Assembly: GCA_002747955.1 (NCBI GenBank)
Contig: PDQZ01000003.1
Span: 1 to 39,273, forward strand
Source: Candidatus Campbellbacteria bacterium
GTDB taxonomy: Bacteria > Patescibacteriota > Minisyncoccia > Phycocordibacterales > GCA-2747955
DNA: 39,273 nucleotides
Direction: 5' to 3'
Shown one piece after another: positions 9,299 to 37,494 of this stretch. The position numbers and the translations under genes are program-made. Position 1 is the stretch's first letter; each line of letters opens with the position of its first letter. The notes under the pieces were generated by a model. The model made no database searches. It was given only the letters and a program-made list of their open reading frames with translations, and had not been told where the DNA came from.

Positions 9299-10204
9299 AT
9301 GAGCACGCAAAAAATTAAAAAATTAATTCTTTCCATGGAAAAAGAATTGAAAAGAATTGAAAAAACACTAAACGAAATTAGTAATTCTTTGCAAAAAGAA
9401 ATCATAATTGTCGAAAACGGTGTTGTGGACATCAAGGGGGCCGAAAAAATTATGGGTTCAAAACAATTTTTGGGACCAGAAGATATTAAAAATACCTTTG
9501 ATTTTTATCCTGAAAATATTCCAGCGATTCCTTTTTCTTGGAAAGAGCTGGAGAGAGCTAGGGATTTTGGGCAACACTTAATTCTTTATGTCGAAAAAAC
9601 TAATGACGGGAAACCATTTACTGTTAAAGAAATGGTTGATATTGTGGACAATAAAACAAGTGAGGGGGAAGAAATTTTTTGTTTTAAAACCCATATACAA
9701 GATGATGAAATCTTGAAAGAGCAAACTCCAAGGAGCGGTTGGAGATTAACAGGCCCTGAAGTTGTTAAGGACAGTACGCAGAAAAATTATCTTGAACAAA
9801 CGGATGTTTTGATATCTTATCTTCAGAATGAGGTTTTTGAAAACCAAGAAGTTCCTGAAGTATATCAAAATGCCATTGATCAGTTTTTAGAAAGAAAAGT
9901 TGAGTTTAAAAAGGAGATAGCCTATTCACCTTATTGGGAAGAAGTGACAAAAAAACTTTCAGAAATTTCAATAAGTCAGCTTTTAAGAGAAAGGTCGAGT
10001 GAAATCATATATCGGTTAATTTTACAAGAGAGAAAATATGGAATTAAAGATTTTATTTCAGGAAGCTCTCTATCAAACTCAATAGGTACGAACGGTAAGA
10101 TTGTACATGTTGACATGCACAAACCCAGTGATTGGCATGTCGGAGGAGTGAGAGCGTGTAAAGGTGCTTGGAGATTGGGAGTTTGTTTTTCTCGAGGTGT
10201 GTGA
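9299..10204 (+). CDS. Hypothetical protein; C-terminus resembles CLec-type DGR variable proteins
   Basis: GAGGAG 8 nt before ATG 9299; N-terminal coiled coil; ends ...GKIVHVD...LGVCFSRGV; resemblance is from recall, not a search. Confidence 0.6.
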   Translation: MSTQKIKKLILSMEKELKRIEKTLNEISNSLQKEIIIVENGVVDIKGAEKIMGSKQFLGPEDIKNTFDFYPENIPAIPFSWKELERARDFGQHLILYVEKTNDGKPFTVKEMVDIVDNKTSEGEEIFCFKTHIQDDEILKEQTPRSGWRLTGPEVVKDSTQKNYLEQTDVLISYLQNEVFENQEVPEVYQNAIDQFLERKVEFKKEIAYSPYWEEVTKKLSEISISQLLRERSSEIIYRLILQERKYGIKDFISGSSLSNSIGTNGKIVHVDMHKPSDWHVGGVRACKGAWRLGVCFSRGV

Positions 10205-10262
10205 AGGTAACCGAAATTTGCGTAAGCAAATTTCGGTTTCAAAAAAGTCTGCGTTTTTTAAT

Positions 10263-10290
10263 AAGCCGAGCAATTTTGCTTGGCTTTTTT
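10263..10290 (+). terminator. Intrinsic terminator
   Basis: AAGCCGAGCAA-TT-TTGCTTGGCTT plus T-run. Confidence 0.65.
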
Positions 10291-10292
10291 TT

Positions 10293-10333
10293 GCACGATT
10301 TTGGCTGCGTGGTTGTGTTTGTCAAAATCGTGC
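10293..10333 (-). repeat. 15-nt-loop hairpin family copy (reverse orientation)
   Basis: Reverse complement GCACGATTTTGAC-AAACACAACCACGCA-GCCAAAATCGTGC. Confidence 0.85.
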
Positions 10334-10348
10334 TTTTGTATACTAAAC

Positions 10349-10385
10349 ATAAAGCGCGCGCAGCCTTCGGCTGCGCGCGCTTTAT
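10349..10385. repeat. GC-rich TTC/GAA triloop hairpin, copy 2
   Basis: ATAAAGCGCGCGCAGCC-TTC-GGCTGCGCGCGCTTTAT, 17-bp perfect stem. Confidence 0.9.
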
Positions 10386-10409
10386 TTTCATTTATGTTAT
10401 AATATCCCT

Positions 10410-12095
10410 ATGATTTTAAAAATAAAAAAAGAAATACAAGAAAACATTTTACAAGCTCTGGAAGAGCTTGGAATTGTCTATGCAGGAAAAATTTCTGTTG
10501 AAAATCCAGATGTTTTAAAAATGGGTGATTTTTCTTCAAACATCGCAATGGTTCTATCAAAACAAGAAAAAACATGTCCGCGTGAACTTGCACAACAAAT
10601 CATCACAAAAATTCAGCCAAATCAAAATATCGCAAAAGTTGAAGTTGCAGGTCCAGGTTTTATAAACTTCTTTTTGTCAAAAAAATATTTTTCAGATTTT
10701 GTAAATGACGAACATTTAAATCTAAATATTTTAAAAAACAAAAAGTTTTTAATCGAACACTCTTCACCAAACTTGTTCAAACCATTTCACATTGGACATT
10801 TGGTAAATAACGCAGTAGGGGAATCTTTATTTAGAGTTTTTCAATTTGCCAAAGCAGATATTAAACAAATTTCTTTTCCATCGGACAAATCACTTGGAAT
10901 TGCCAAAACAGTTTGGGGTCTAAAACACAAAATGCAACAAGAAAAAAACGAATTAGTTTTTGACATTAAGTCTTTTGGTGATGCATATGTTTTGGGAACA
11001 CAAGAATTTGAAAAATCAGAAGATGTTAAAAACGAAGTAATTCAAATCAACAAAGACATTTACAACGAAGAAGGGGAGAACTTTGAAATTTACAAAAAAG
11101 GAGTTGAAATTTCAAAGCAATATTTTCTAGACATTACAAAAAGACTTGGATCAAGATTTGACGGATTTATTTACGAATCAGAGTCAGAAGAGGTTGGAAA
11201 AGAAATTATTCAAAACAATATTGGAAAAGTTTTCAAAAAATCAGAAGGGGCAATTATTTTTGAAGGTTCAAAATACGGTGTTTACGACAATGTTTTCATA
11301 AACAGTGACGGTTTTGCCACTTATTCTGGAAAAGACTTAGGACTTTTACAAAAAAAGTTTAGTCTTTACGACTTTGACAAATCAATTACTTTAACAGACA
11401 TTGAGCAAAAAGGGCATTTTCAAGTTGTTAAAAAAGCAGCAGGTTTGATTGAAAAAAGTTGGGAAGAAGATTCAGAATATATTTCACACGGACGACTTGG
11501 TTTTGCGGGCAATGTTAAAATTTCATCAAGATACGGAAACGTACCACTAGCAGCTGACTTAATTGATAAAGTAAAAGAAAGCATTAAAGAAAAAATTAAA
11601 GATCGTGATTTTGAAAAAAAAGAGCAGGAGGAAATAATGGAAAAACTTGCCATTGGAACTTTAAAATACACAATTTTGAAAGTTTCATGTGGTAAAAATA
11701 TGGTTTTTGATTTTCAAAAAGCTTTATCTTTACAAGGAAACACTGAATCTTATTTAAATTATTCTCTTGTTAGAGCTTTGTCAGTTTTGGAAAAAACTAA
11801 TCAAGAAAACACAAAAGAAGATGCTCAAAAAACAAGCGATGTTTCAGAATTTGAACAAAATTTATGTCGTTTCGATGATATAATTTTAAAAGTTATAGAA
11901 TCTTATTCTCCGCACCACTTGGCAAATTATTTACATCAAATTGCAACAGATTTTAATTCATTTTACGCTGAAACAAAAATCTTAGATCAAGAAAATCAGA
12001 ATTATTTGTATAATTTAAAATTAACAAAAAAGTTTTCAAAAATTATGCAAAAAGGACTTGATTTGCTTGGAATTCAATTTGTAGAGAAAATGTAA
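10410..12095 (+). CDS. argS: Arginine-tRNA ligase
   Basis: GDFSSNIAM, VAGPGFINF, EHSSPNLFKPFHIGH (HIGH), KISSRYG, C-terminal DALR-type FNSFY. Confidence 0.96.
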   Translation: MILKIKKEIQENILQALEELGIVYAGKISVENPDVLKMGDFSSNIAMVLSKQEKTCPRELAQQIITKIQPNQNIAKVEVAGPGFINFFLSKKYFSDFVNDEHLNLNILKNKKFLIEHSSPNLFKPFHIGHLVNNAVGESLFRVFQFAKADIKQISFPSDKSLGIAKTVWGLKHKMQQEKNELVFDIKSFGDAYVLGTQEFEKSEDVKNEVIQINKDIYNEEGENFEIYKKGVEISKQYFLDITKRLGSRFDGFIYESESEEVGKEIIQNNIGKVFKKSEGAIIFEGSKYGVYDNVFINSDGFATYSGKDLGLLQKKFSLYDFDKSITLTDIEQKGHFQVVKKAAGLIEKSWEEDSEYISHGRLGFAGNVKISSRYGNVPLAADLIDKVKESIKEKIKDRDFEKKEQEEIMEKLAIGTLKYTILKVSCGKNMVFDFQKALSLQGNTESYLNYSLVRALSVLEKTNQENTKEDAQKTSDVSEFEQNLCRFDDIILKVIESYSPHHLANYLHQIATDFNSFYAETKILDQENQNYLYNLKLTKKFSKIMQKGLDLLGIQFVEKM

Positions 12096-12104
12096 AATAA
12101 AAAT

Positions 12105-12380
12105 ATGAAAAAACCAAAAATTTTATTTTTCATATTTTTTATTTTGTTACAATTATACTTAATATATTTTGCATTTAGATATGAAAGTATAGAAAAGTAT
12201 ATTACAAATTATTATTTAAATAAAAATGAAAAAATCCAATACCAAATTTCAAATATCAATTGTACTAGAACCAAATGTTTTGTTAATTTAAAAAACACAC
12301 AAAATCAAAAAAACAGAAATATCACAGTTTTATTATTTCCATTTCCAGAAGTTTGGCGTGATACAAAATATCTTCCTTAA
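12105..12380 (+). CDS. Small membrane-anchored hypothetical protein
   Basis: 91 aa, N-terminal TM helix, CxxxxC; follows argS by 9 nt. Confidence 0.6.
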   Translation: MKKPKILFFIFFILLQLYLIYFAFRYESIEKYITNYYLNKNEKIQYQISNINCTRTKCFVNLKNTQNQKNRNITVLLFPFPEVWRDTKYLP

Positions 12381-12394
12381 AAAATTAATAAAAG

Positions 12395-12444
12395 AAGCCC
12401 GAAAATTTGGTCCACACAACCACACAAGCCAAATTTTCGGGCTT
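12395..12444 (+). repeat. 15-nt-loop hairpin family copy
   Basis: AAGCCCGAAAATTTGG-t-CCACACAACCACACA-ag-CCAAATTTTCGGGCTT. Confidence 0.85.
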
Positions 12445-12479
12445 TTTAACTTGATTTTTAATATAAAATATATATAAAT

Positions 12480-12740
12480 ATGACAAATAACAATCAAACA
12501 GCAATTTTAAATATCACAATTCCAAAAAATACCAAAGCTGATTTTCAAGCTTTAGCAAAAAATATGGGTACAACTCCGTCAAATTTAATCAAAATGTTTA
12601 TCACACAAAGTTTAAACAGCGACGAAATCACATTTTCAACAAACACTGAAAATACTTTAAAAACAGAACAATTTTCAAAACAAGAACAAGAAGATTTATT
12701 GAATAATGAAAGTATTAAAAATAACATTTCGAAAATGTAA
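12480..12740 (+). CDS. RelB/DinJ-like ribbon-helix-helix antitoxin, no adjacent toxin
   Basis: AILNITIPKNTKADFQALAKNMGTTPSNLIKMFITQ fits the RHH pattern of RelB/DinJ. Confidence 0.65.
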   Translation: MTNNNQTAILNITIPKNTKADFQALAKNMGTTPSNLIKMFITQSLNSDEITFSTNTENTLKTEQFSKQEQEDLLNNESIKNNISKM

Positions 12741-12760
12741 GGCTTGCTTAAAAAATAAAA

Positions 12761-12800
12761 CACGATTTTGACTCGCGCAACTAAACACGTCAAAACCGTG
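12761..12800. repeat. Divergent loop-family hairpin
   Basis: CACGATTTTGAC-16 nt-GTCAAAACCGTG. Confidence 0.7.
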
Positions 12801-12849
12801 CTTTTTTATTTCCCCAAATTGAAAGTTTGTAGTATAATTTAAAAATATT

Positions 12850-14073
12850 ATGAAAAAATTATACATCGTAGCAAATTTTGGAGAAGTTTATTTAAAAGGA
12901 CAAAACATTTCTTTTTTTGAAAAAAAACTTTTTCAATCTTTAAATTTAAAAATCAAAAAAATTAAACACAAGATCAAATTTGATAAAAAAAGTGGAGGTT
13001 CTTTTTTTATCAAACTTTCAGAAGACATTACAAATGATGAAATAAATTTTCTAGAACAAAGTATTAAAAACACTTTTGGTTTTTCAAACTATTACAAAGC
13101 ATATTTTGCACAAGATTTTTCAATGGAAAGTTTAGAAAAAACCGTTTTGGACTTTCTAGAAGATTTTGATTTTTCAAAAAAAGAAATCCAAACTTTCGGT
13201 GTGCATACAGAAAAAGTTTCACACAACGACAAGCTTAAAACTCAAAATGTAAATGTTCAAATCGGTTCTGCAGTTTACAATTTTTTAGAAAAAAAGTTTG
13301 GGAAGATAAAAGTGGATTTAGACAATCCAGATTTTGTTATAAATATTAAAATCAGAAATGACAAAGTTTTAGTTTTTGGAACACCAAAACAAGCGTTAGG
13401 TGGACTTCCAACAGGTGCCATTGGAAAAAACATTGTTTTGCTTTCAGGAGGTTTTGACTCACCAGTTGCATCTTTTTTAGCTCAAAAAAGGGGACTTGAA
13501 ACATATTTTGCCCACTTTCACTCAGTTCCTAAAACAGACAAAAGGTCGATAGAGAAAGTTAAAGAACTTGCAAATGAACTTGTTAAATTTCAAGGTTTTG
13601 GAAAGCTTTTTTTAGTACCAATTATTGATATTCAAAAAGACATTGTTCAAAATGCAGAAAGAAGATATTCTATTTTGTTGCAAAGAAGAGCTTTTTTGGA
13701 AATCGCAGAGCAAATTTCAAAACAATACAATCTAGAAGCACAAGTTTTTACAACAGGAGACAGTTTAGGACAAGTTGCTTCACAAACTTTAGAAAACTTA
13801 GTGACAGTTTCAGAGAAACTTGATGATCACAATTTGATTTTAAGACCGTTGATCACTTACGACAAACAAGAAATTTTAGAACTTGCAAAAAAAATTAACA
13901 CTTACAAAATTTCAGAACGTCCACATCAAGATGCTTGCGAACTTTTTGTACCAGATAAACCTGAAACAAGATCAGTTTTAGAAAAAGTGAAAGAAGAAGA
14001 AAAAAACTTAGATAAATTTTTAATCCAAAAAGCAATTGATAACACAGAAGTGATAAATTTAAAAATTGATTAA
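12850..14073 (+). CDS. thiI: tRNA 4-thiouridine synthase ThiI
   Basis: GEVYLKGQN, THUMP domain, LLSGGFDSPVA PP-loop, TGDSLGQVASQT, LRPLITYDKQEI. Confidence 0.95.
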   Translation: MKKLYIVANFGEVYLKGQNISFFEKKLFQSLNLKIKKIKHKIKFDKKSGGSFFIKLSEDITNDEINFLEQSIKNTFGFSNYYKAYFAQDFSMESLEKTVLDFLEDFDFSKKEIQTFGVHTEKVSHNDKLKTQNVNVQIGSAVYNFLEKKFGKIKVDLDNPDFVINIKIRNDKVLVFGTPKQALGGLPTGAIGKNIVLLSGGFDSPVASFLAQKRGLETYFAHFHSVPKTDKRSIEKVKELANELVKFQGFGKLFLVPIIDIQKDIVQNAERRYSILLQRRAFLEIAEQISKQYNLEAQVFTTGDSLGQVASQTLENLVTVSEKLDDHNLILRPLITYDKQEILELAKKINTYKISERPHQDACELFVPDKPETRSVLEKVKEEEKNLDKFLIQKAIDNTEVINLKID

Positions 14074-14090
14074 AATAAAAACTCAAAAAA

Positions 14091-14131
14091 GCCCGATTTT
14101 GACCCACACACCCACCCAGTCAAAATCGGGC
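14091..14131 (+). repeat. 15-nt-loop hairpin family copy
   Basis: GCCCGATTTTGAC-CCACACACCCACCCA-GTCAAAATCGGGC; 40/41 identical to 37292-37332. Confidence 0.9.
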
Positions 14132-14151
14132 TTTTGTCAAATTATAAAAAT

Positions 14152-14180
14152 TTGACAAACAAAATACAAAGGTGTATAAT
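14152..14180 (+). promoter_or_regulatory. Consensus sigma70 promoter P1 of peptide array
   Basis: TTGACA-N17-TATAAT. Confidence 0.85.
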
Positions 14181-14222
14181 GCCAATCTAATTCTTTAAAA
14201 ACAAATATAGAAGGAGCAAAAA

Positions 14223-14339
14223 ATGAAAGATCTAATGGTTCTTTTGGTTGTTATAGCATTTTTTGCCACATATATGTGGCTTAATTACTTAAACCTCAAA
14301 AGAGGTGCAAAAATTGAACAAAAGGAGGTGGTTAAATGA
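14223..14339 (+). CDS. Small membrane peptide A (38 aa) MKDLMVLLVVIAFFATYMWLNYLNLKRGAKIEQKEVVK
   Basis: AGGAG SD; one TM helix plus charged tail; stop overlaps next start (ATGA). Confidence 0.75.
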   Translation: MKDLMVLLVVIAFFATYMWLNYLNLKRGAKIEQKEVVK

Positions 14340-14464
14340 GAAAGGTTAGAAAAACCTTTGGTCAAAGAACAACAGAAACCTTAAACCAGATTATGTTCTG
14401 GCAAGGTTTTGTTGCGGCAAGTACCATTTGGGGAGTTTTATTTTTTTTATTTGTTGTTAAATAA
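14336..14464 (+). CDS. Small membrane peptide B (42 aa) MRKVRKTFGQRTTETLNQIMFWQGFVAASTIWGVLFFLFVVK
   Basis: AAGGAGGT SD; basic N-terminus plus C-terminal TM helix. Confidence 0.75.
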   Translation: MRKVRKTFGQRTTETLNQIMFWQGFVAASTIWGVLFFLFVVK

Positions 14465-14482
14465 AAATACAAGGGGCACAAA

Positions 14483-14575
14483 ATGAAAACCTTAGAATTC
14501 TTTTTATACACACTGCTTGCAATAGCAACAGCTATTGCTTTAGCAATGGGTATGGCAACAATTATAATAACTTAA
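14483..14575 (+). CDS. Small membrane peptide C (30 aa) MKTLEFFLYTLLAIATAIALAMGMATIIIT
   Basis: AAGGGG SD-like; hydrophobic helix; terminator directly after. Confidence 0.65.
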   Translation: MKTLEFFLYTLLAIATAIALAMGMATIIIT

Positions 14576-14577
14576 AA

Positions 14578-14609
14578 AAAACCACCTTTGGTTTTCCAAA
14601 GGTGGTTTT
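14578..14609 (+). terminator. Terminator after peptides A-C
   Basis: AAAACCACCTTTGG-TTTT-CCAAAGGTGGTTTT. Confidence 0.8.
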
Positions 14610-14639
14610 CACTTTTCCCAAAAACTTACAAAAAAGGTG

Positions 14640-14668
14640 TTGACACAAAAAACATAAACTGTTAGAAT
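14640..14668 (+). promoter_or_regulatory. Sigma70 promoter P2 of peptide array
   Basis: TTGACA-N17-TAGAAT with TG-n extended -10. Confidence 0.8.
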
Positions 14669-14711
14669 GAATATAGGTTAAATAAAACAACGGCAACAAA
14701 GGAGGTATATT

Positions 14712-14828
14712 ATGTTCCCGGTTTTTACAATCTTGGCTATCGGGCTACTGTCAGCCTTTGTAGCCGCAGGTCTTTTAGGACTCGTTTTATTTGCTTATTT
14801 CGGGTTCGAAAAGTTTATCCATCATTAA
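14712..14828 (+). CDS. Small membrane peptide D (38 aa) MFPVFTILAIGLLSAFVAAGLLGLVLFAYFGFEKFIHH
   Basis: AAAGGAGGT SD; long Gly/Ala-rich hydrophobic helix; own promoter and terminator. Confidence 0.8.
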   Translation: MFPVFTILAIGLLSAFVAAGLLGLVLFAYFGFEKFIHH

Positions 14829-14854
14829 CAAAACTAGTTTTTAGTTTTTACAAC

Positions 14855-14878
14855 AGGCTCGTTCAACGAGCCTTTTTT
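14855..14878 (+). terminator. Terminator after peptide D
   Basis: AGGCTCGTT-C-AACGAGCCT-TTTTT. Confidence 0.8.
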
Positions 14879-14902
14879 AATCAAAATTAAGGTAGGAGAA
14901 AA

Positions 14903-14992
14903 ATGGTTCACAATATACTATTTCTGGTTGGTGTTGCAGGAGTTTTGACCTTTATTGGATTTGGGGCTTATCTTTTTCTGCACAAAAAATAA
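14903..14992 (+). CDS. Small membrane peptide E (29 aa) MVHNILFLVGVAGVLTFIGFGAYLFLHKK
   Basis: TAAGGTAGGAG SD; TM helix with basic C-terminus. Confidence 0.75.
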   Translation: MVHNILFLVGVAGVLTFIGFGAYLFLHKK

Positions 14993-14999
14993 AAACTTA

Positions 15000-15027
15000 A
15001 AAAACTCGTTTTCCAAAACGAGTTTTT
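15000..15027. terminator. Bidirectional terminator
   Basis: AAAAACTCGTTTT-CC-AAAACGAGTTTTT between convergent genes. Confidence 0.75.
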
Positions 15028-15717
15028 CTATTTTTTCTTTTCTTTAATATATTTTCCCATTTTAAACCAAAACTCTTTTTTCTTTTCAAAATTCGTCTTT
15101 CGACTTTGCTTAGCTTCTGCAAAAAACTGATTGATTTTGTGTTCAGGCACTTGTTTGAACATTCCAATATAAAAAGAAAAAGATCCATACCCGAAAGCGG
15201 CATTTTCTCCAAAATAATTTCGAATAGTATCAACAAGCTCTTGCATTTCAGAGTGGTATTTTTTTTCTCGATTTAAAATATTGTCAGTATTTAAAAGTTC
15301 AGAAATAGAACTTGTAGAACCTTTTTTTTTGCTTTTTTCAGAAATTGATTTTTTCTGTCTTTTGTTTGGGAAAAAAGATTTTAAATTTTTGTTTTGACAA
15401 TTTTTAATTTCAAAGGGATTTTTCAAATATTTTTTAATCTGATTTATCTCAAAATTTTCAACAATTTTTCCATCTTTAAAATCTCCACTTTTTGAAAGTT
15501 TTAGTTTTTTAATCTCGATTTTTCCACTTCGAATTTCTTCTTTTAAATCAGAAACATTTTGAATTTTCAAAACAACAGCTTTTGATTTTTTGTTTCCCTC
15601 AATTATTTCAAACATATCTCCAACTTTAAAATTGACATTTGAAAAAAACTTCAAAAACTTTCTGTTTTTTGAAATTTCCCTAACAGACCTTTTTGTCAAA
15701 AGTGTTAAAATCTTCAT
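15028..15717 (-). CDS. Hypothetical protein; N-terminus resembles PriA 3'-DNA-binding domain
   Basis: 229 aa, TG-n-TATAAT 6 nt before ATG; F-S...VGDMFEI...KAVVLKIQNVSDLKEEIR pattern; no helicase motifs. Confidence 0.6.
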   Translation of the reverse strand: MKILTLLTKRSVREISKNRKFLKFFSNVNFKVGDMFEIIEGNKKSKAVVLKIQNVSDLKEEIRSGKIEIKKLKLSKSGDFKDGKIVENFEINQIKKYLKNPFEIKNCQNKNLKSFFPNKRQKKSISEKSKKKGSTSSISELLNTDNILNREKKYHSEMQELVDTIRNYFGENAAFGYGSFSFYIGMFKQVPEHKINQFFAEAKQSRKTNFEKKKEFWFKMGKYIKEKKK

Positions 15718-15760
15718 GCTTATATTATAACAAAAAATAAACTTGTGTTAAAATAAAAAC

Positions 15761-22984: not shown

Positions 22985-23053
22985 ATTACAATTTTAACAC
23001 AAAAATTAACAAAAGCTTAAAGGGAAAAACAAAAAATCTGTTATAATAAAATT

Positions 23054-23929
23054 ATGAAATATTTAAAAATAGCAACTTTGATTTTTCTTTTTATTTCTTT
23101 AATTTTAATTTTGTCTTTTTCTTTTCAAAAACAAAAAGAAAATCAAATCACTTTTTTAAATGTTGGACAAGGAAGCGGAACACTGATCAAAACCAAAAAC
23201 GGAACAGAGATTTTAATAGATTTATCCGACAAACAAATTGCTCAAAAGTCTCTGTTAAAAGAACTTGGTTTTTTTAACAGAGAAATTGATTTTTTGTTTT
23301 TAACTCATTACGACATTGATCACGTTGGAGGTTTTTTAGACTTGTTTGGGAAATATAAAATCAAAGGATTTTTTACTTCAAAAACCATTCCAGAAAATAA
23401 AGACCAAAAAGAAGTCTACAATTTGATTTACAAAAATTTAAAAAAAGAAAATATCAAAGATTTTAAAATCAACACCGAGGATATTTTGAAAATTTCTGAG
23501 AATCTTTATATTGAAGTTTTATATCCTTTTTCAGATTTAAATTTGAACAAGATGAACCCAAACGAAACTTCACTTGTTTTGCAAATTCATTTTACAGATC
23601 AAAGCAAAACAGAAAAGAAAGTTTTAATCACAGGCGACTTGTCTTCGAAAATGGAAAATTTTTTAGTTCAAAAATATGGAAAAAAGTTAAAGTCAGAAAT
23701 TTTGCTTGCAGGACATCACGGGTCTAAAACTTCTTCATCAGAACTTTTTTTAAAAACCGTTTCTCCAAAATATTTTGTCATTCAAGCAGGACTTTCAAAT
23801 CCTTACGGACACCCACACAAAAGTGTTTTAAACCGAGTTTTAAAAATGAACATTCAAATTTTAGAAACCTCAAAAAAAGGCAATCAAAGATTTGTTTTTA
23901 AAAATGGAAACTTGGTTTTAGAAAATTAA
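23054..23929 (+). CDS. ComEC/Rec2-type metallo-beta-lactamase domain protein (stand-alone)
   Basis: FLNVGQG, LTHYDIDHVGG, NETSLV, LITGDL, AGHHGSKTSS, NPYGHPH; single N-terminal TM. Confidence 0.9.
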   Translation: MKYLKIATLIFLFISLILILSFSFQKQKENQITFLNVGQGSGTLIKTKNGTEILIDLSDKQIAQKSLLKELGFFNREIDFLFLTHYDIDHVGGFLDLFGKYKIKGFFTSKTIPENKDQKEVYNLIYKNLKKENIKDFKINTEDILKISENLYIEVLYPFSDLNLNKMNPNETSLVLQIHFTDQSKTEKKVLITGDLSSKMENFLVQKYGKKLKSEILLAGHHGSKTSSSELFLKTVSPKYFVIQAGLSNPYGHPHKSVLNRVLKMNIQILETSKKGNQRFVFKNGNLVLEN

Positions 23930-28182: not shown

Positions 28183-29319
28183 ATGCAAAAAATAACAGAT
28201 CTAAAATTAAAAAAAGAAAGTACAGTTTTGATCAGAGCAAGTTTAAACGTGCCAGTTAAAAAAGATAAAAATAAGAAAGAAAAAATTGAAGACGATTTTC
28301 GTTTAAAATCAATTTTAAAAACTTTAAAATATTTATCAAAAAAGGAAGCCAGGATTGTTTTAATAGGTCATATTGGAAAAGACCAAAAGAGTAATTTTGA
28401 TTTGGTTTTTAAGTGGCTAAAAAAAGAATTGAAAAAAGACAATATCAATATTTATTTTGATTCTGGAACTTTTTTAAATTTTGATAAAGAAAAAATAAAA
28501 GAAGTGCAAAATAAAATTGAAGATTTAGAGGGCGGAGAAATTTTACTTTTAGATAATTTAAGACATACAGAAAAAGAGAAGAAAAATAGTAAAAAGTTTG
28601 CGAGAGAACTAAAAAACTTAGCTGATTTTTATATAAATGAAGCATTTGCTGTTTCGCACAGAAAACATTGTTCGGTTTCAGCTTTACCTGATAAATTTAC
28701 TTTAAGTAAAAAAGCTTATGGTTTTAGATTTGAAGATGAGTTAAAAAATATACAAAAAATTAAGAAACATAAATCTCCTTCGATTTTGTTTTTAGGCGGA
28801 GCTAAAATTGAAACAAAATTGCCAATGATTAAAAACTTGATCGATGAGTTTGATCTTGTTGTTTTGGGTGGGGGAATTGCAAATACATTTTATAAACAAA
28901 AAGGTTTTGAAATTGGAAAGTCAATTTGTGATGATAAAAACATAAATATCAAAAATCTTTTGAAAAATCCAAAAATTTTTATTCCTGAAATTGTAGAAAC
29001 TGAAAACGGAATAAAGCATATTTCTGAAGTTAAAAAAAATGAAAAAATTTTGGATAACAACCCAAGGTCTTATAAAGAACTTGAAGAGGTTTTCAAAAAA
29101 GCAAAATTTGTTTTTTATAACGGGCCTTTTGGGTATTATGAAGGTGGGTATAAAAAAGGAAGTATTTATATTTTGAAAAAATTTGCAAACAAAAAACAGT
29201 ATTTTGTCATTGGCGGTGGAAACACAGTTTCGGTTGCCCAAAAACTAAAACTTGAAGATAAAATAAATTTTATTTCAACGGGTGGAGGAGCTTTGCTTTA
29301 TGGGTTAAGCCGAAAATAA
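28183..29319 (+). CDS. pgk: Phosphoglycerate kinase
   Basis: LNVP, EAFAVSHR, LGGAKIETK, GGGIANTF, NGPFG, IGGGNT, ISTGGGALL. Confidence 0.93.
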   Translation: MQKITDLKLKKESTVLIRASLNVPVKKDKNKKEKIEDDFRLKSILKTLKYLSKKEARIVLIGHIGKDQKSNFDLVFKWLKKELKKDNINIYFDSGTFLNFDKEKIKEVQNKIEDLEGGEILLLDNLRHTEKEKKNSKKFARELKNLADFYINEAFAVSHRKHCSVSALPDKFTLSKKAYGFRFEDELKNIQKIKKHKSPSILFLGGAKIETKLPMIKNLIDEFDLVVLGGGIANTFYKQKGFEIGKSICDDKNINIKNLLKNPKIFIPEIVETENGIKHISEVKKNEKILDNNPRSYKELEEVFKKAKFVFYNGPFGYYEGGYKKGSIYILKKFANKKQYFVIGGGNTVSVAQKLKLEDKINFISTGGGALLYGLSRK

Positions 29320-29337
29320 AAATTGTAAAAAACAAAA

Positions 29338-29378
29338 GCCCGATTTTGACAAACACACCCACGCAGTCAAAATCGGGC
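29338..29378 (+). repeat. 15-nt-loop hairpin family copy
   Basis: GCCCGATTTTGAC-AAACACACCCACGCA-GTCAAAATCGGGC. Confidence 0.9.
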
Positions 29379-29391
29379 TTTTTCATTTAAC

Positions 29392-37226: not shown

Positions 37227-37291
37227 AAAAGTTAGAAATTAACCAAAACTTTTATTATAAAATTTTTGATTTTTTTAATAAAAAGAAAAAA

Positions 37292-37332
37292 GCCCGATTA
37301 TGACCCACACACCCACCCAGTCAAAATCGGGC
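37292..37332 (+). repeat. 15-nt-loop hairpin family copy
   Basis: GCCCGATTATGAC-CCACACACCCACCCA-GTCAAAATCGGGC. Confidence 0.9.
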
Positions 37333-37364
37333 TTTTAAACTTAAATTTTTTTTTAAAATTTTTC

Positions 37365-37397
37365 AAAGCCAAAACAGGCTTCGCTTGTTTTGGCTTT
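37365..37397. repeat. TTC/GAA triloop hairpin
   Basis: AAAGCCAAAACAGGC-TTC-GCTTGTTTTGGCTTT; resembles 8969-9003. Confidence 0.8.
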
Positions 37398-37494
37398 CAT
37401 TCTCCAAAAACCTCCAGAAAATTCTAAAAATCTCACCCACAACCCTCCATCAAAACCCCTTTCATTTTCTCACTTTTTCTGATAAAATAAATTT

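Follow-up and report, generated by a model that had tools for sequence, protein, structure and literature searches.

Patescibacteria have minimal genomes, their membrane biology is unknown and their small proteins are essentially unstudied. The bacterial small membrane proteins of at most 50 amino acids (aa), among them AcrZ, KdpF, MgrB, YohP and CydX, are a known class (reviewed in PMC12648545) whose members have a single transmembrane (TM) helix that is not amphipathic, no signal peptide and a Shine-Dalgarno (SD) site of their own, are mostly missed by annotation, and are expected to be inserted post-translationally by way of the signal recognition particle (SRP) and YidC. We have analyzed a 39,273-nucleotide (nt) stretch of DNA from a Candidatus Campbellbacteria bacterium (NCBI GenBank assembly GCA_002747955.1, contig PDQZ01000003.1, positions 1 to 39,273 of the forward strand; hereafter the window), in which five micropeptide genes, here called A–E, lie back to back between thiI and a convergent gene for a 229-aa protein. 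The five products, of 29–42 aa, share all of these features with the class, but differ from its named members in having no sequence relationship to them, in the lack of a partner complex nearby, in being five unrelated peptides at one locus and in belonging to a host whose expression is otherwise leaderless. A–E are very probably real small-protein genes, and we lean, with some reserve, towards the reading that their products act in the membrane of the producer itself, as small integral membrane proteins. The region is best filed as a lineage-specific, strain-variable cassette, and its peptides as orphan additions to the class.

Two other kinds of described system resemble the locus. Type I toxins (Fst/Ldr, TxpA, BsrG/BsrE, Ibs, TisB) are like A–E in length, in a hydrophobic helix with charged ends, in having their own promoter and terminator, in their intergenic site and in their variability between strains. 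The staphylococcal psm-alpha operon and aureocin A70 likewise carry back-to-back micro open reading frames (micro-ORFs) with their own SD sites on short transcripts that annotation long overlooked. Those peptides are amphipathic and paralogous and are served by a dedicated ABC transporter, whereas A–E are uniformly hydrophobic and not detectably paralogous, and there is no transporter nearby.

As Table 1 shows, the interval between thiI and the 229-aa gene, 954 bp in length, holds five ATG-initiated ORFs, all on the + strand. A first-pass annotation, made from the sequence alone, had described these as five SD-led micro-ORFs with one TM helix each, and recomputing the ORFs, SD sites and helices gave the same result. 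The sequence signals predict two transcription units, P1-A-B-C-T1 and P2-D-T2-E-T3. P1 and P2, both close to the sigma-70 consensus, are the two best + strand sites in a promoter scan of 3.5 kb, and P2 fits the genome's own TGnTAnAAT motif. The SD cores, in gene order AAGGAG, AAGGAGGT, AAGG(GG), AAGGAGGT and AGGAG, end 4–8 nt short of the start codon. Around their starts of translation, A and C share 76% identity across 41 nt. The claim that the genes have promoters and terminators of their own was verified for P1, P2 and four hairpin terminators, but not for E: promoter and motif scans found no promoter between T2 and the SD of E, so that read-through from P2 is probable. The terminator scan scored T3 on both strands and T1 on the minus strand only, because the U-tract of T1 on the + strand is interrupted.

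Table 1. Predicted features of the micropeptide cassette and its flanking genes (window coordinates; hairpin energies in kcal/mol)
Feature	Coordinates	Strand	Description
P1 promoter	14152..14180	+	TTGACA-17-TATAAT, 12/12 consensus; leader ~35-40 nt to A-B-C
Gene A	14223..14339	+	38 aa, MKDLMVLLVVIAFFATYMWLNYLNLKRGAKIEQKEVVK; TGA stop; SD AAGGAG, 6 nt spacing
Gene B	14336..14464	+	42 aa, MRKVRKTFGQRTTETLNQIMFWQGFVAASTIWGVLFFLFVVK; SD AAGGAGGT; ATG overlaps the TGA stop of A as ATGA
Gene C	14483..14575	+	30 aa, MKTLEFFLYTLLAIATAIALAMGMATIIIT; bare TM helix; SD AAGGGG
T1	14578..14609	.	Perfect 14-bp hairpin after C; A-tract and U-tract flanks (bidirectional shape); -21.3
P2 promoter	14640..14668	+	TTGACA-17-TG-n-TAGAAT, 11/12 consensus plus TG extension; leader ~37 nt to D
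Gene D	14712..14828	+	38 aa, MFPVFTILAIGLLSAFVAAGLLGLVLFAYFGFEKFIHH; long TM helix; SD AAGGAGGT; GC 41%, highest of the five
T2	14855..14873	+	8-bp GC-rich hairpin and six T, between D and E; one-directional terminator or attenuator; -12.1
Gene E	14903..14992	+	29 aa, MVHNILFLVGVAGVLTFIGFGAYLFLHKK; TM helix, C-terminal HKK; SD (GT)AGGAG
T3	15000..15027	.	Bidirectional terminator, common to E and the convergent 229-aa gene; -11.5
T0 (thiI terminator)	14088..14135	+	17-bp stem, C/A-rich loop CCACACACCCACCCA; left border of the cassette; -24.8
thiI (tRNA 4-thiouridine synthase), left flank	12850..14073	+	Pfam ThiI (7.7e-56), THUMP, ThiI_fer
229-aa protein gene, right flank	15028..15717	-	Conserved in, and specific to, Paceibacteria and other Patescibacteria; leaderless promoter; soluble

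The clustering of A–E is far beyond chance. Both strands of the 39-kb window contain 97 ATG-initiated ORFs of 25–70 aa; an SD of at least 4 nt combined with a 17-residue Kyte-Doolittle window of at least 2.0 is found in six of these, and five of the six are A–E. In 5000 sequences drawn from first-order Markov models, matched in composition either to the region or to the full 39 kb, each strand yielded 0 or 1 such ORF, with a mean of ~0.02, and never two or more, which agrees with the earlier statement that five such ORFs are unlikely to arise by chance. No comparable cluster of micro-ORFs occurs in ~383 kb of related Patescibacteria loci.

The cassette also stands out against the way the rest of the genome is expressed. 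In the window, which has a GC content of 30%, the motif TGnTAnAAT is found 42 times where 13 are expected. A -10 box lies 4–9 nt before the start in 16 of the 36 long ORFs and ends exactly 6 nt before the ATG in 15 of these, and an SD core of any kind precedes only five of the 36. This pattern (examples at 10395-10412, 15711-15732 and 23039-23056) points to largely leaderless mRNAs as the usual mode of expression in this genome; the first-pass annotation, which had noted that most housekeeping genes lack an SD, if anything understated the case. A–E are all SD-led, with leaders of 35–43 nt, and the difference in SD presence between the micro-ORFs (5/5) and the long ORFs (5/36) has a hypergeometric p of ~3e-4 by our own arithmetic from these counts. 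Set against host genes that are mostly leaderless, A–E with their leaders and SD sites form an exceptional cassette, and the locus is a clean natural contrast of leaderless and SD-led initiation within one genome.

The peptides themselves are alike in their physical character. Each has one stretch of TM length, with a mean hydrophobicity of 0.78–0.88 (Eisenberg scale, 18 residues) and a hydrophobic moment of 0.04–0.12, as compared with moments of 0.22–0.53 for AurA and PSM-alpha3 (a phenol-soluble modulin, PSM). This profile is like that of Fst, AcrZ and KdpF, and unlike that of the amphipathic PSM-alpha3 and aureocin. The uniform hydrophobicity and low moment are those of classical TM helices rather than of amphipathic peptides. 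In A the helix is N-terminal and is followed by a cationic C-terminal tail; B begins with a basic segment of ~20 residues and ends in the helix, as tail-anchored proteins do; C and D are almost bare helices. Paralogy among the five is undetectable, the best pairs reaching p ~0.02 before correction for ten comparisons.

Comparison with related loci shows how variable this arrangement is. The nearest relative, L005, which comes from another sequencing run, has a 229-aa protein that is 78% identical, a ThiI that is 73% identical and a nitroreductase that is 73% identical to those of the window. There, thiI still converges on the 229-aa gene, but the spacer measures only ~306 bp and holds a single micro-ORF on the thiI strand, MKKKIELLMYTALTILMIMAVFLGIASLFIKV, with AAAGGGG upstream. 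This peptide aligns to C without internal gaps, with a Smith-Waterman score of 53 against 22.9 +/- 4.6 for composition-preserving shuffles, 0 of 5000 of which scored as high. It has the position, strand and AAGGGG SD of C, and shows no likeness to A, B, D or E. At the DNA level the match is limited to the start region of C (74% over 50 nt by blastn). The first-pass annotation had asked for a check of synteny and for a search for frameshifts or stops in homologous regions; the arrangement of the flanking genes is kept, and the second check, applicable to C only, found the L005 ortholog intact and significantly similar. Among the five an ortholog is detectable for C alone, which makes C a conserved, fast-evolving gene. 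A, B, D and E were either gained in this lineage or lost in that of L005.

In the more distant relatives the cassette is missing. In ThiI relatives at 55% identity other genes directly follow thiI, and relatives at ~60% identity of the 229-aa protein (L007-L015, L061-L063) have different neighbours and no comparable cluster. With five genes here, one in L005 and none in these more distant relatives, the locus is accessory and fast-evolving. These data and the classical TM helices support the earlier description of an accessory membrane-peptide cassette, and they indicate that such micropeptide genes turn over fast between close relatives. A second close relative, L006, is uninformative on the cassette since its contig ends at the terminator of the 229-aa gene. 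On the side that faces the nitroreductase in the window, this 80%-identity relative carries a 57-aa ORF (109-282, minus strand) with one hydrophobic segment (MEKIRRRKGSKKFYMMVGVFGIIIISTITF...) beside its 231-aa homolog, which reads as another sign of small-gene turnover around the locus.

Searches with the peptides place them in no family. None of the five matches Pfam or NCBIfam at E <= 1, which includes MgrB, AcrZ, KdpF, CydX and SecE/SecG; PHROGs returned only noise (E >= 0.08), PADLOC nothing beyond noise, and PDB sequences no match to A, B or D, with no match to Fst at E <= 10. An exhaustive HMMER search of 1.84 billion representative proteins with B returned only B itself and P0163, which is spurious: it is a 588-aa tandem-repeat protein whose score was summed over 10 repeats. 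Motifs back-translated from A, B and D with degenerate codons hit GTDB genomes and IMG/VR only twice, by chance and each time within a large, unrelated ORF, and tblastn and blastn against phage and plasmid records gave nothing meaningful, the best phage match being 64 nt and at chance level. Against 56 related loci, tblastn with the five peptides gave no match better than E = 0.07. A word-index search with the five peptides concatenated returned nothing, self matches included, and is no evidence of absence, since local phmmer gives a self E of ~1e-17 and the index is thus blind to proteins so short.

The suggestion that the ORFs are hidden from annotation applies to D and E, which are in no public gene call; A, B and C were already called, A in the NCBI gene calls as well. 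In a collection of 15 billion proteins A, B and C are singleton clusters and D and E are absent. Gene callers therefore miss well-signalled micropeptide genes in Patescibacteria, D and E being in no public catalogue. The Logan gene caller read A through its TGA stop to give a 53-aa product, having applied a TGA-sense code to the contig. The window, however, uses the standard genetic code: translation with table 11 leaves the 36 long ORFs intact, tryptophan is TGG in A and B, and TGA is the stop in only 3 of the 36. In L057, which holds the closest full-length ThiI relative (55% identity), the genes downstream (4747-6728) contain in-frame stops under table 11, presumably TGA, and this lineage probably uses an alternative code.

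How the peptides would be made and placed can be sketched from these features. The ATG of B overlaps the stop of A, and the SD of B is paired to A coding sequence in both the minimum free energy and the centroid predicted folds of the ABC mRNA, which together imply translational coupling. Such coupling would keep the proportions of A, B and C constant, which is what one expects of peptides that cooperate within the membrane, and A-B(-C) made in this coupled way may form a small hetero-oligomer. T2 probably attenuates the second unit, which would leave D in excess over E. A–E are too short to engage SRP co-translationally, so that post-translational insertion is expected, and post-translational, SRP-dependent insertion has been described for membrane proteins of up to 45–50 aa (PMC12648545). 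The peptides would accordingly be released from the ribosome and then inserted into the producer's cytoplasmic membrane along an SRP/YidC/SecYEG route. By the positive-inside rule, A would adopt an N-out/C-in topology with its cationic tail in the cytoplasm and B would be tail-anchored with its basic N-terminus inside, while C, D and E would be near-bare helices. Most likely they serve the cell that makes them as accessory helices, binding or tuning its larger membrane proteins or its bilayer. If the peptides are accessory subunits, they are a pointer to unrecognized membrane complexes.

Several observations weigh against this reading. No candidate for a partner membrane complex is encoded among the nearby genes: the neighbours are thiI, the gene for the soluble 229-aa protein, the nitroreductase, L28 and an M50 protease gene, with no kdp, cyd, acr or sec genes among them. 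The searches above found no homolog of A, B, D or E, and purifying selection is therefore undemonstrable for four of the five. The ortholog of C is only ~37% identical, as compared with 73–78% for the flanking proteins, so that constraint would fall mostly on hydrophobicity. T-rich DNA at 30% GC readily encodes hydrophobic ORFs, though not together with an SD, promoter and terminator. Finally, the SD of D is paired with codons ~14–18 in a 5' region whose predicted fold is more stable than its shuffles (z = -2.98), which is also compatible with control of the toxin type.

This last point bears on the alternative that one or more of the peptides is type I toxin-like and depolarizes or permeabilizes the cell's own membrane, and would normally be silenced by the folding of its mRNA, by a small RNA or by both; the foremost candidates would be D, which is monocistronic, and A, which starts Fst-like with MKDLM. 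The size, single TM helix and charged ends of the peptides fit type I toxins as defined in PMC12648545, the units have promoters and terminators of their own, lie between convergent genes and are strain-variable and orphan, the SD of D is sequestered in the predicted fold, and the bidirectional shape of T0, T1 and T3 could serve to end antisense RNAs. We nevertheless consider a toxin role unlikely. Neither the sigma-70 consensus nor the genome's TGnTAnAAT motif reveals a promoter-like site on the minus strand at 14190-15027, the leaders are short, and the folds around A (z = -0.54) and E (z = +0.74) are no better than those of shuffles. A coupled tricistron is atypical of type I toxins, the units are not paralogous repeats, and there is no match to Fst, Ldr or any other such family in Pfam, to an Rfam antitoxin at threshold or to a PDB sequence; A aligned to Fst scores 5.8 bits in phmmer, which leaves the shared MKDLM start unsupported by alignment. 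The toxin role proposed in the first-pass annotation is not supported: neither an antisense promoter for the RNA antitoxin that defines such systems nor a family match was found. Its defence role found no counterpart in PADLOC, and neither did its inovirus coat role in PHROGs: the flanks of A–E are conserved chromosomal genes, with no inovirus module and no phage genes around them. A broader proposal, that the locus is an array of type I-toxin-like or host-directed membrane effectors, the first in Patescibacteria, is in our judgment rather more doubtful still. Its leaders and SD sites would then be a separate translational channel, which mRNA structure, the state of the ribosome or a C-rich RNA could switch without affecting the housekeeping genes, and the locus would be a hotspot for the gain or birth of TM micropeptide genes, five here and one in the relative at 73–78% protein identity. 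A demonstration that the peptides are toxins or effectors would extend type I-like systems to the candidate phyla radiation.

Patescibacteria live attached to hosts, and export of membrane-active peptides against other cells, be it as bacteriocins, PSMs or episymbiont effectors of host interaction made in bulk as from the psm-alpha operon, would suit both this habit and the very strong expression signals (a 12/12 promoter and 8-nt SDs), and tandem unannotated micro-ORFs recall psm-alpha and aureocin A70. This is very improbable for helices that are uniformly hydrophobic and neither amphipathic nor cationic like PSMs or leaderless bacteriocins, with no ABC exporter, immunity gene or double-glycine leader nearby and no bacteriocin family match in Pfam or NCBIfam. 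It is similarly hard to credit that A–E are not genes at all, and are instead chance or newborn ORFs in T-rich intergenic DNA, the remains of a multi-TM gene or chiefly structured noncoding RNAs. Four of the five lack an ortholog and are absent from the nearest relative, the ABC transcript is predicted to fold strongly (z = -6.1, terminator included), and a multi-TM AI-2E transporter gene lies downstream of thiI in L057. Against this, a fivefold combination of ATG, spaced SD and TM helix with promoters and terminators was never reproduced in the 5000 random regions, and C is conserved as an ORF. No Rfam family was found at threshold across the region, the sub-threshold matches being driven by the terminator hairpins. 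A remnant of the AI-2E transporter was rejected, since the region gave no tblastn match to that protein or to those encoded beside it (best E 0.47).

Other identities and origins for the peptides were also considered. The N-terminus of C (TLE...) recalls type IV pilins, which as a rule carry a Gly at -1 and a globular domain; C has neither, nor a Pfam match, and this identity was rejected. Likewise, a cluster for ribosomally synthesized and post-translationally modified peptides or thiazole/oxazole-modified microcins, brought to mind by the nearby nitroreductase, was rejected for want of a modifying enzyme, whether YcaO-type or other, and because TM helices such as these are not cores rich in Cys, Ser and Thr. 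The pooled GC content at third codon positions of A–E is 0.31, as compared with 0.22 +/- 0.04 in the long ORFs; when only the same amino acids are counted the values are 0.25 and 0.195, an offset of ~1.5 standard deviations that indicates a foreign origin weakly, and the one compositional outlier among the five is D (0.41). A 19-nt A-rich direct repeat, AAAATAAAAACTYAAAAAA, flanks the cassette at 14072-14090 and 14986-15004, with 18 of 19 positions identical and the copies right behind the stop codons of thiI and E. It may be the trace of an insertion or mere low-complexity, A-rich terminator flank.

The 229-aa protein on the right has 37 homologs, with related loci in metagenome-assembled genomes (MAGs) of Parcubacteria, Paceibacterota and Campbellbacteria, which places the host among the Patescibacteria, as the first-pass annotation had supposed; conservation of its last ~80 residues extends to Saccharibacteria and Kazan MAGs. 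Its predicted structure (pLDDT, the predicted local distance difference test, 85.5) has no match with E < 0.1 among PDB folds, the best being to PriA, which the N-terminal domain weakly resembles, and offers no functional link to the cassette. On the other side, upstream of thiI, an 86-aa gene at 12480-12737 (+) resembles RelB/ribbon-helix-helix antitoxins (Pfam RelB 1.4e-06), with no obvious RelE-type toxin partner; the 91-aa ORF that precedes it, at 12105-12380, matches no family.

The terminator of thiI is one of three near-identical copies of a 48-nt hairpin, AAAAGCCCGATTTTGAC-CCACACACCCACCCA-GTCAAAATCGGGCTTTT, at 14088-14135, 29335-29381 and 37289-37337, each with its C/A-rich loop on the + strand and each downstream of + strand genes. 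An independent Logan contig spans 14106-18276 at 100% identity and confirms the contiguity of the cassette with the 229-aa gene, and another covers 9850-14129. The break between them at 14106-14129 is due to the repeated hairpin and is not a sign of a chimera. The second hairpin copy overlaps the sixth micro-ORF of the count above (29270-29386, minus strand, 38 aa), which has a weak and badly spaced SD; on account of both features it is probably spurious and not a gene. The third copy is followed by a C-rich intergenic stretch, unusual at 30% GC, at 37340-37480, with two anti-SD-like CCTCC motifs and, at 37368-37397, a second hairpin. This stretch, which matches no Rfam family, could be a small RNA.

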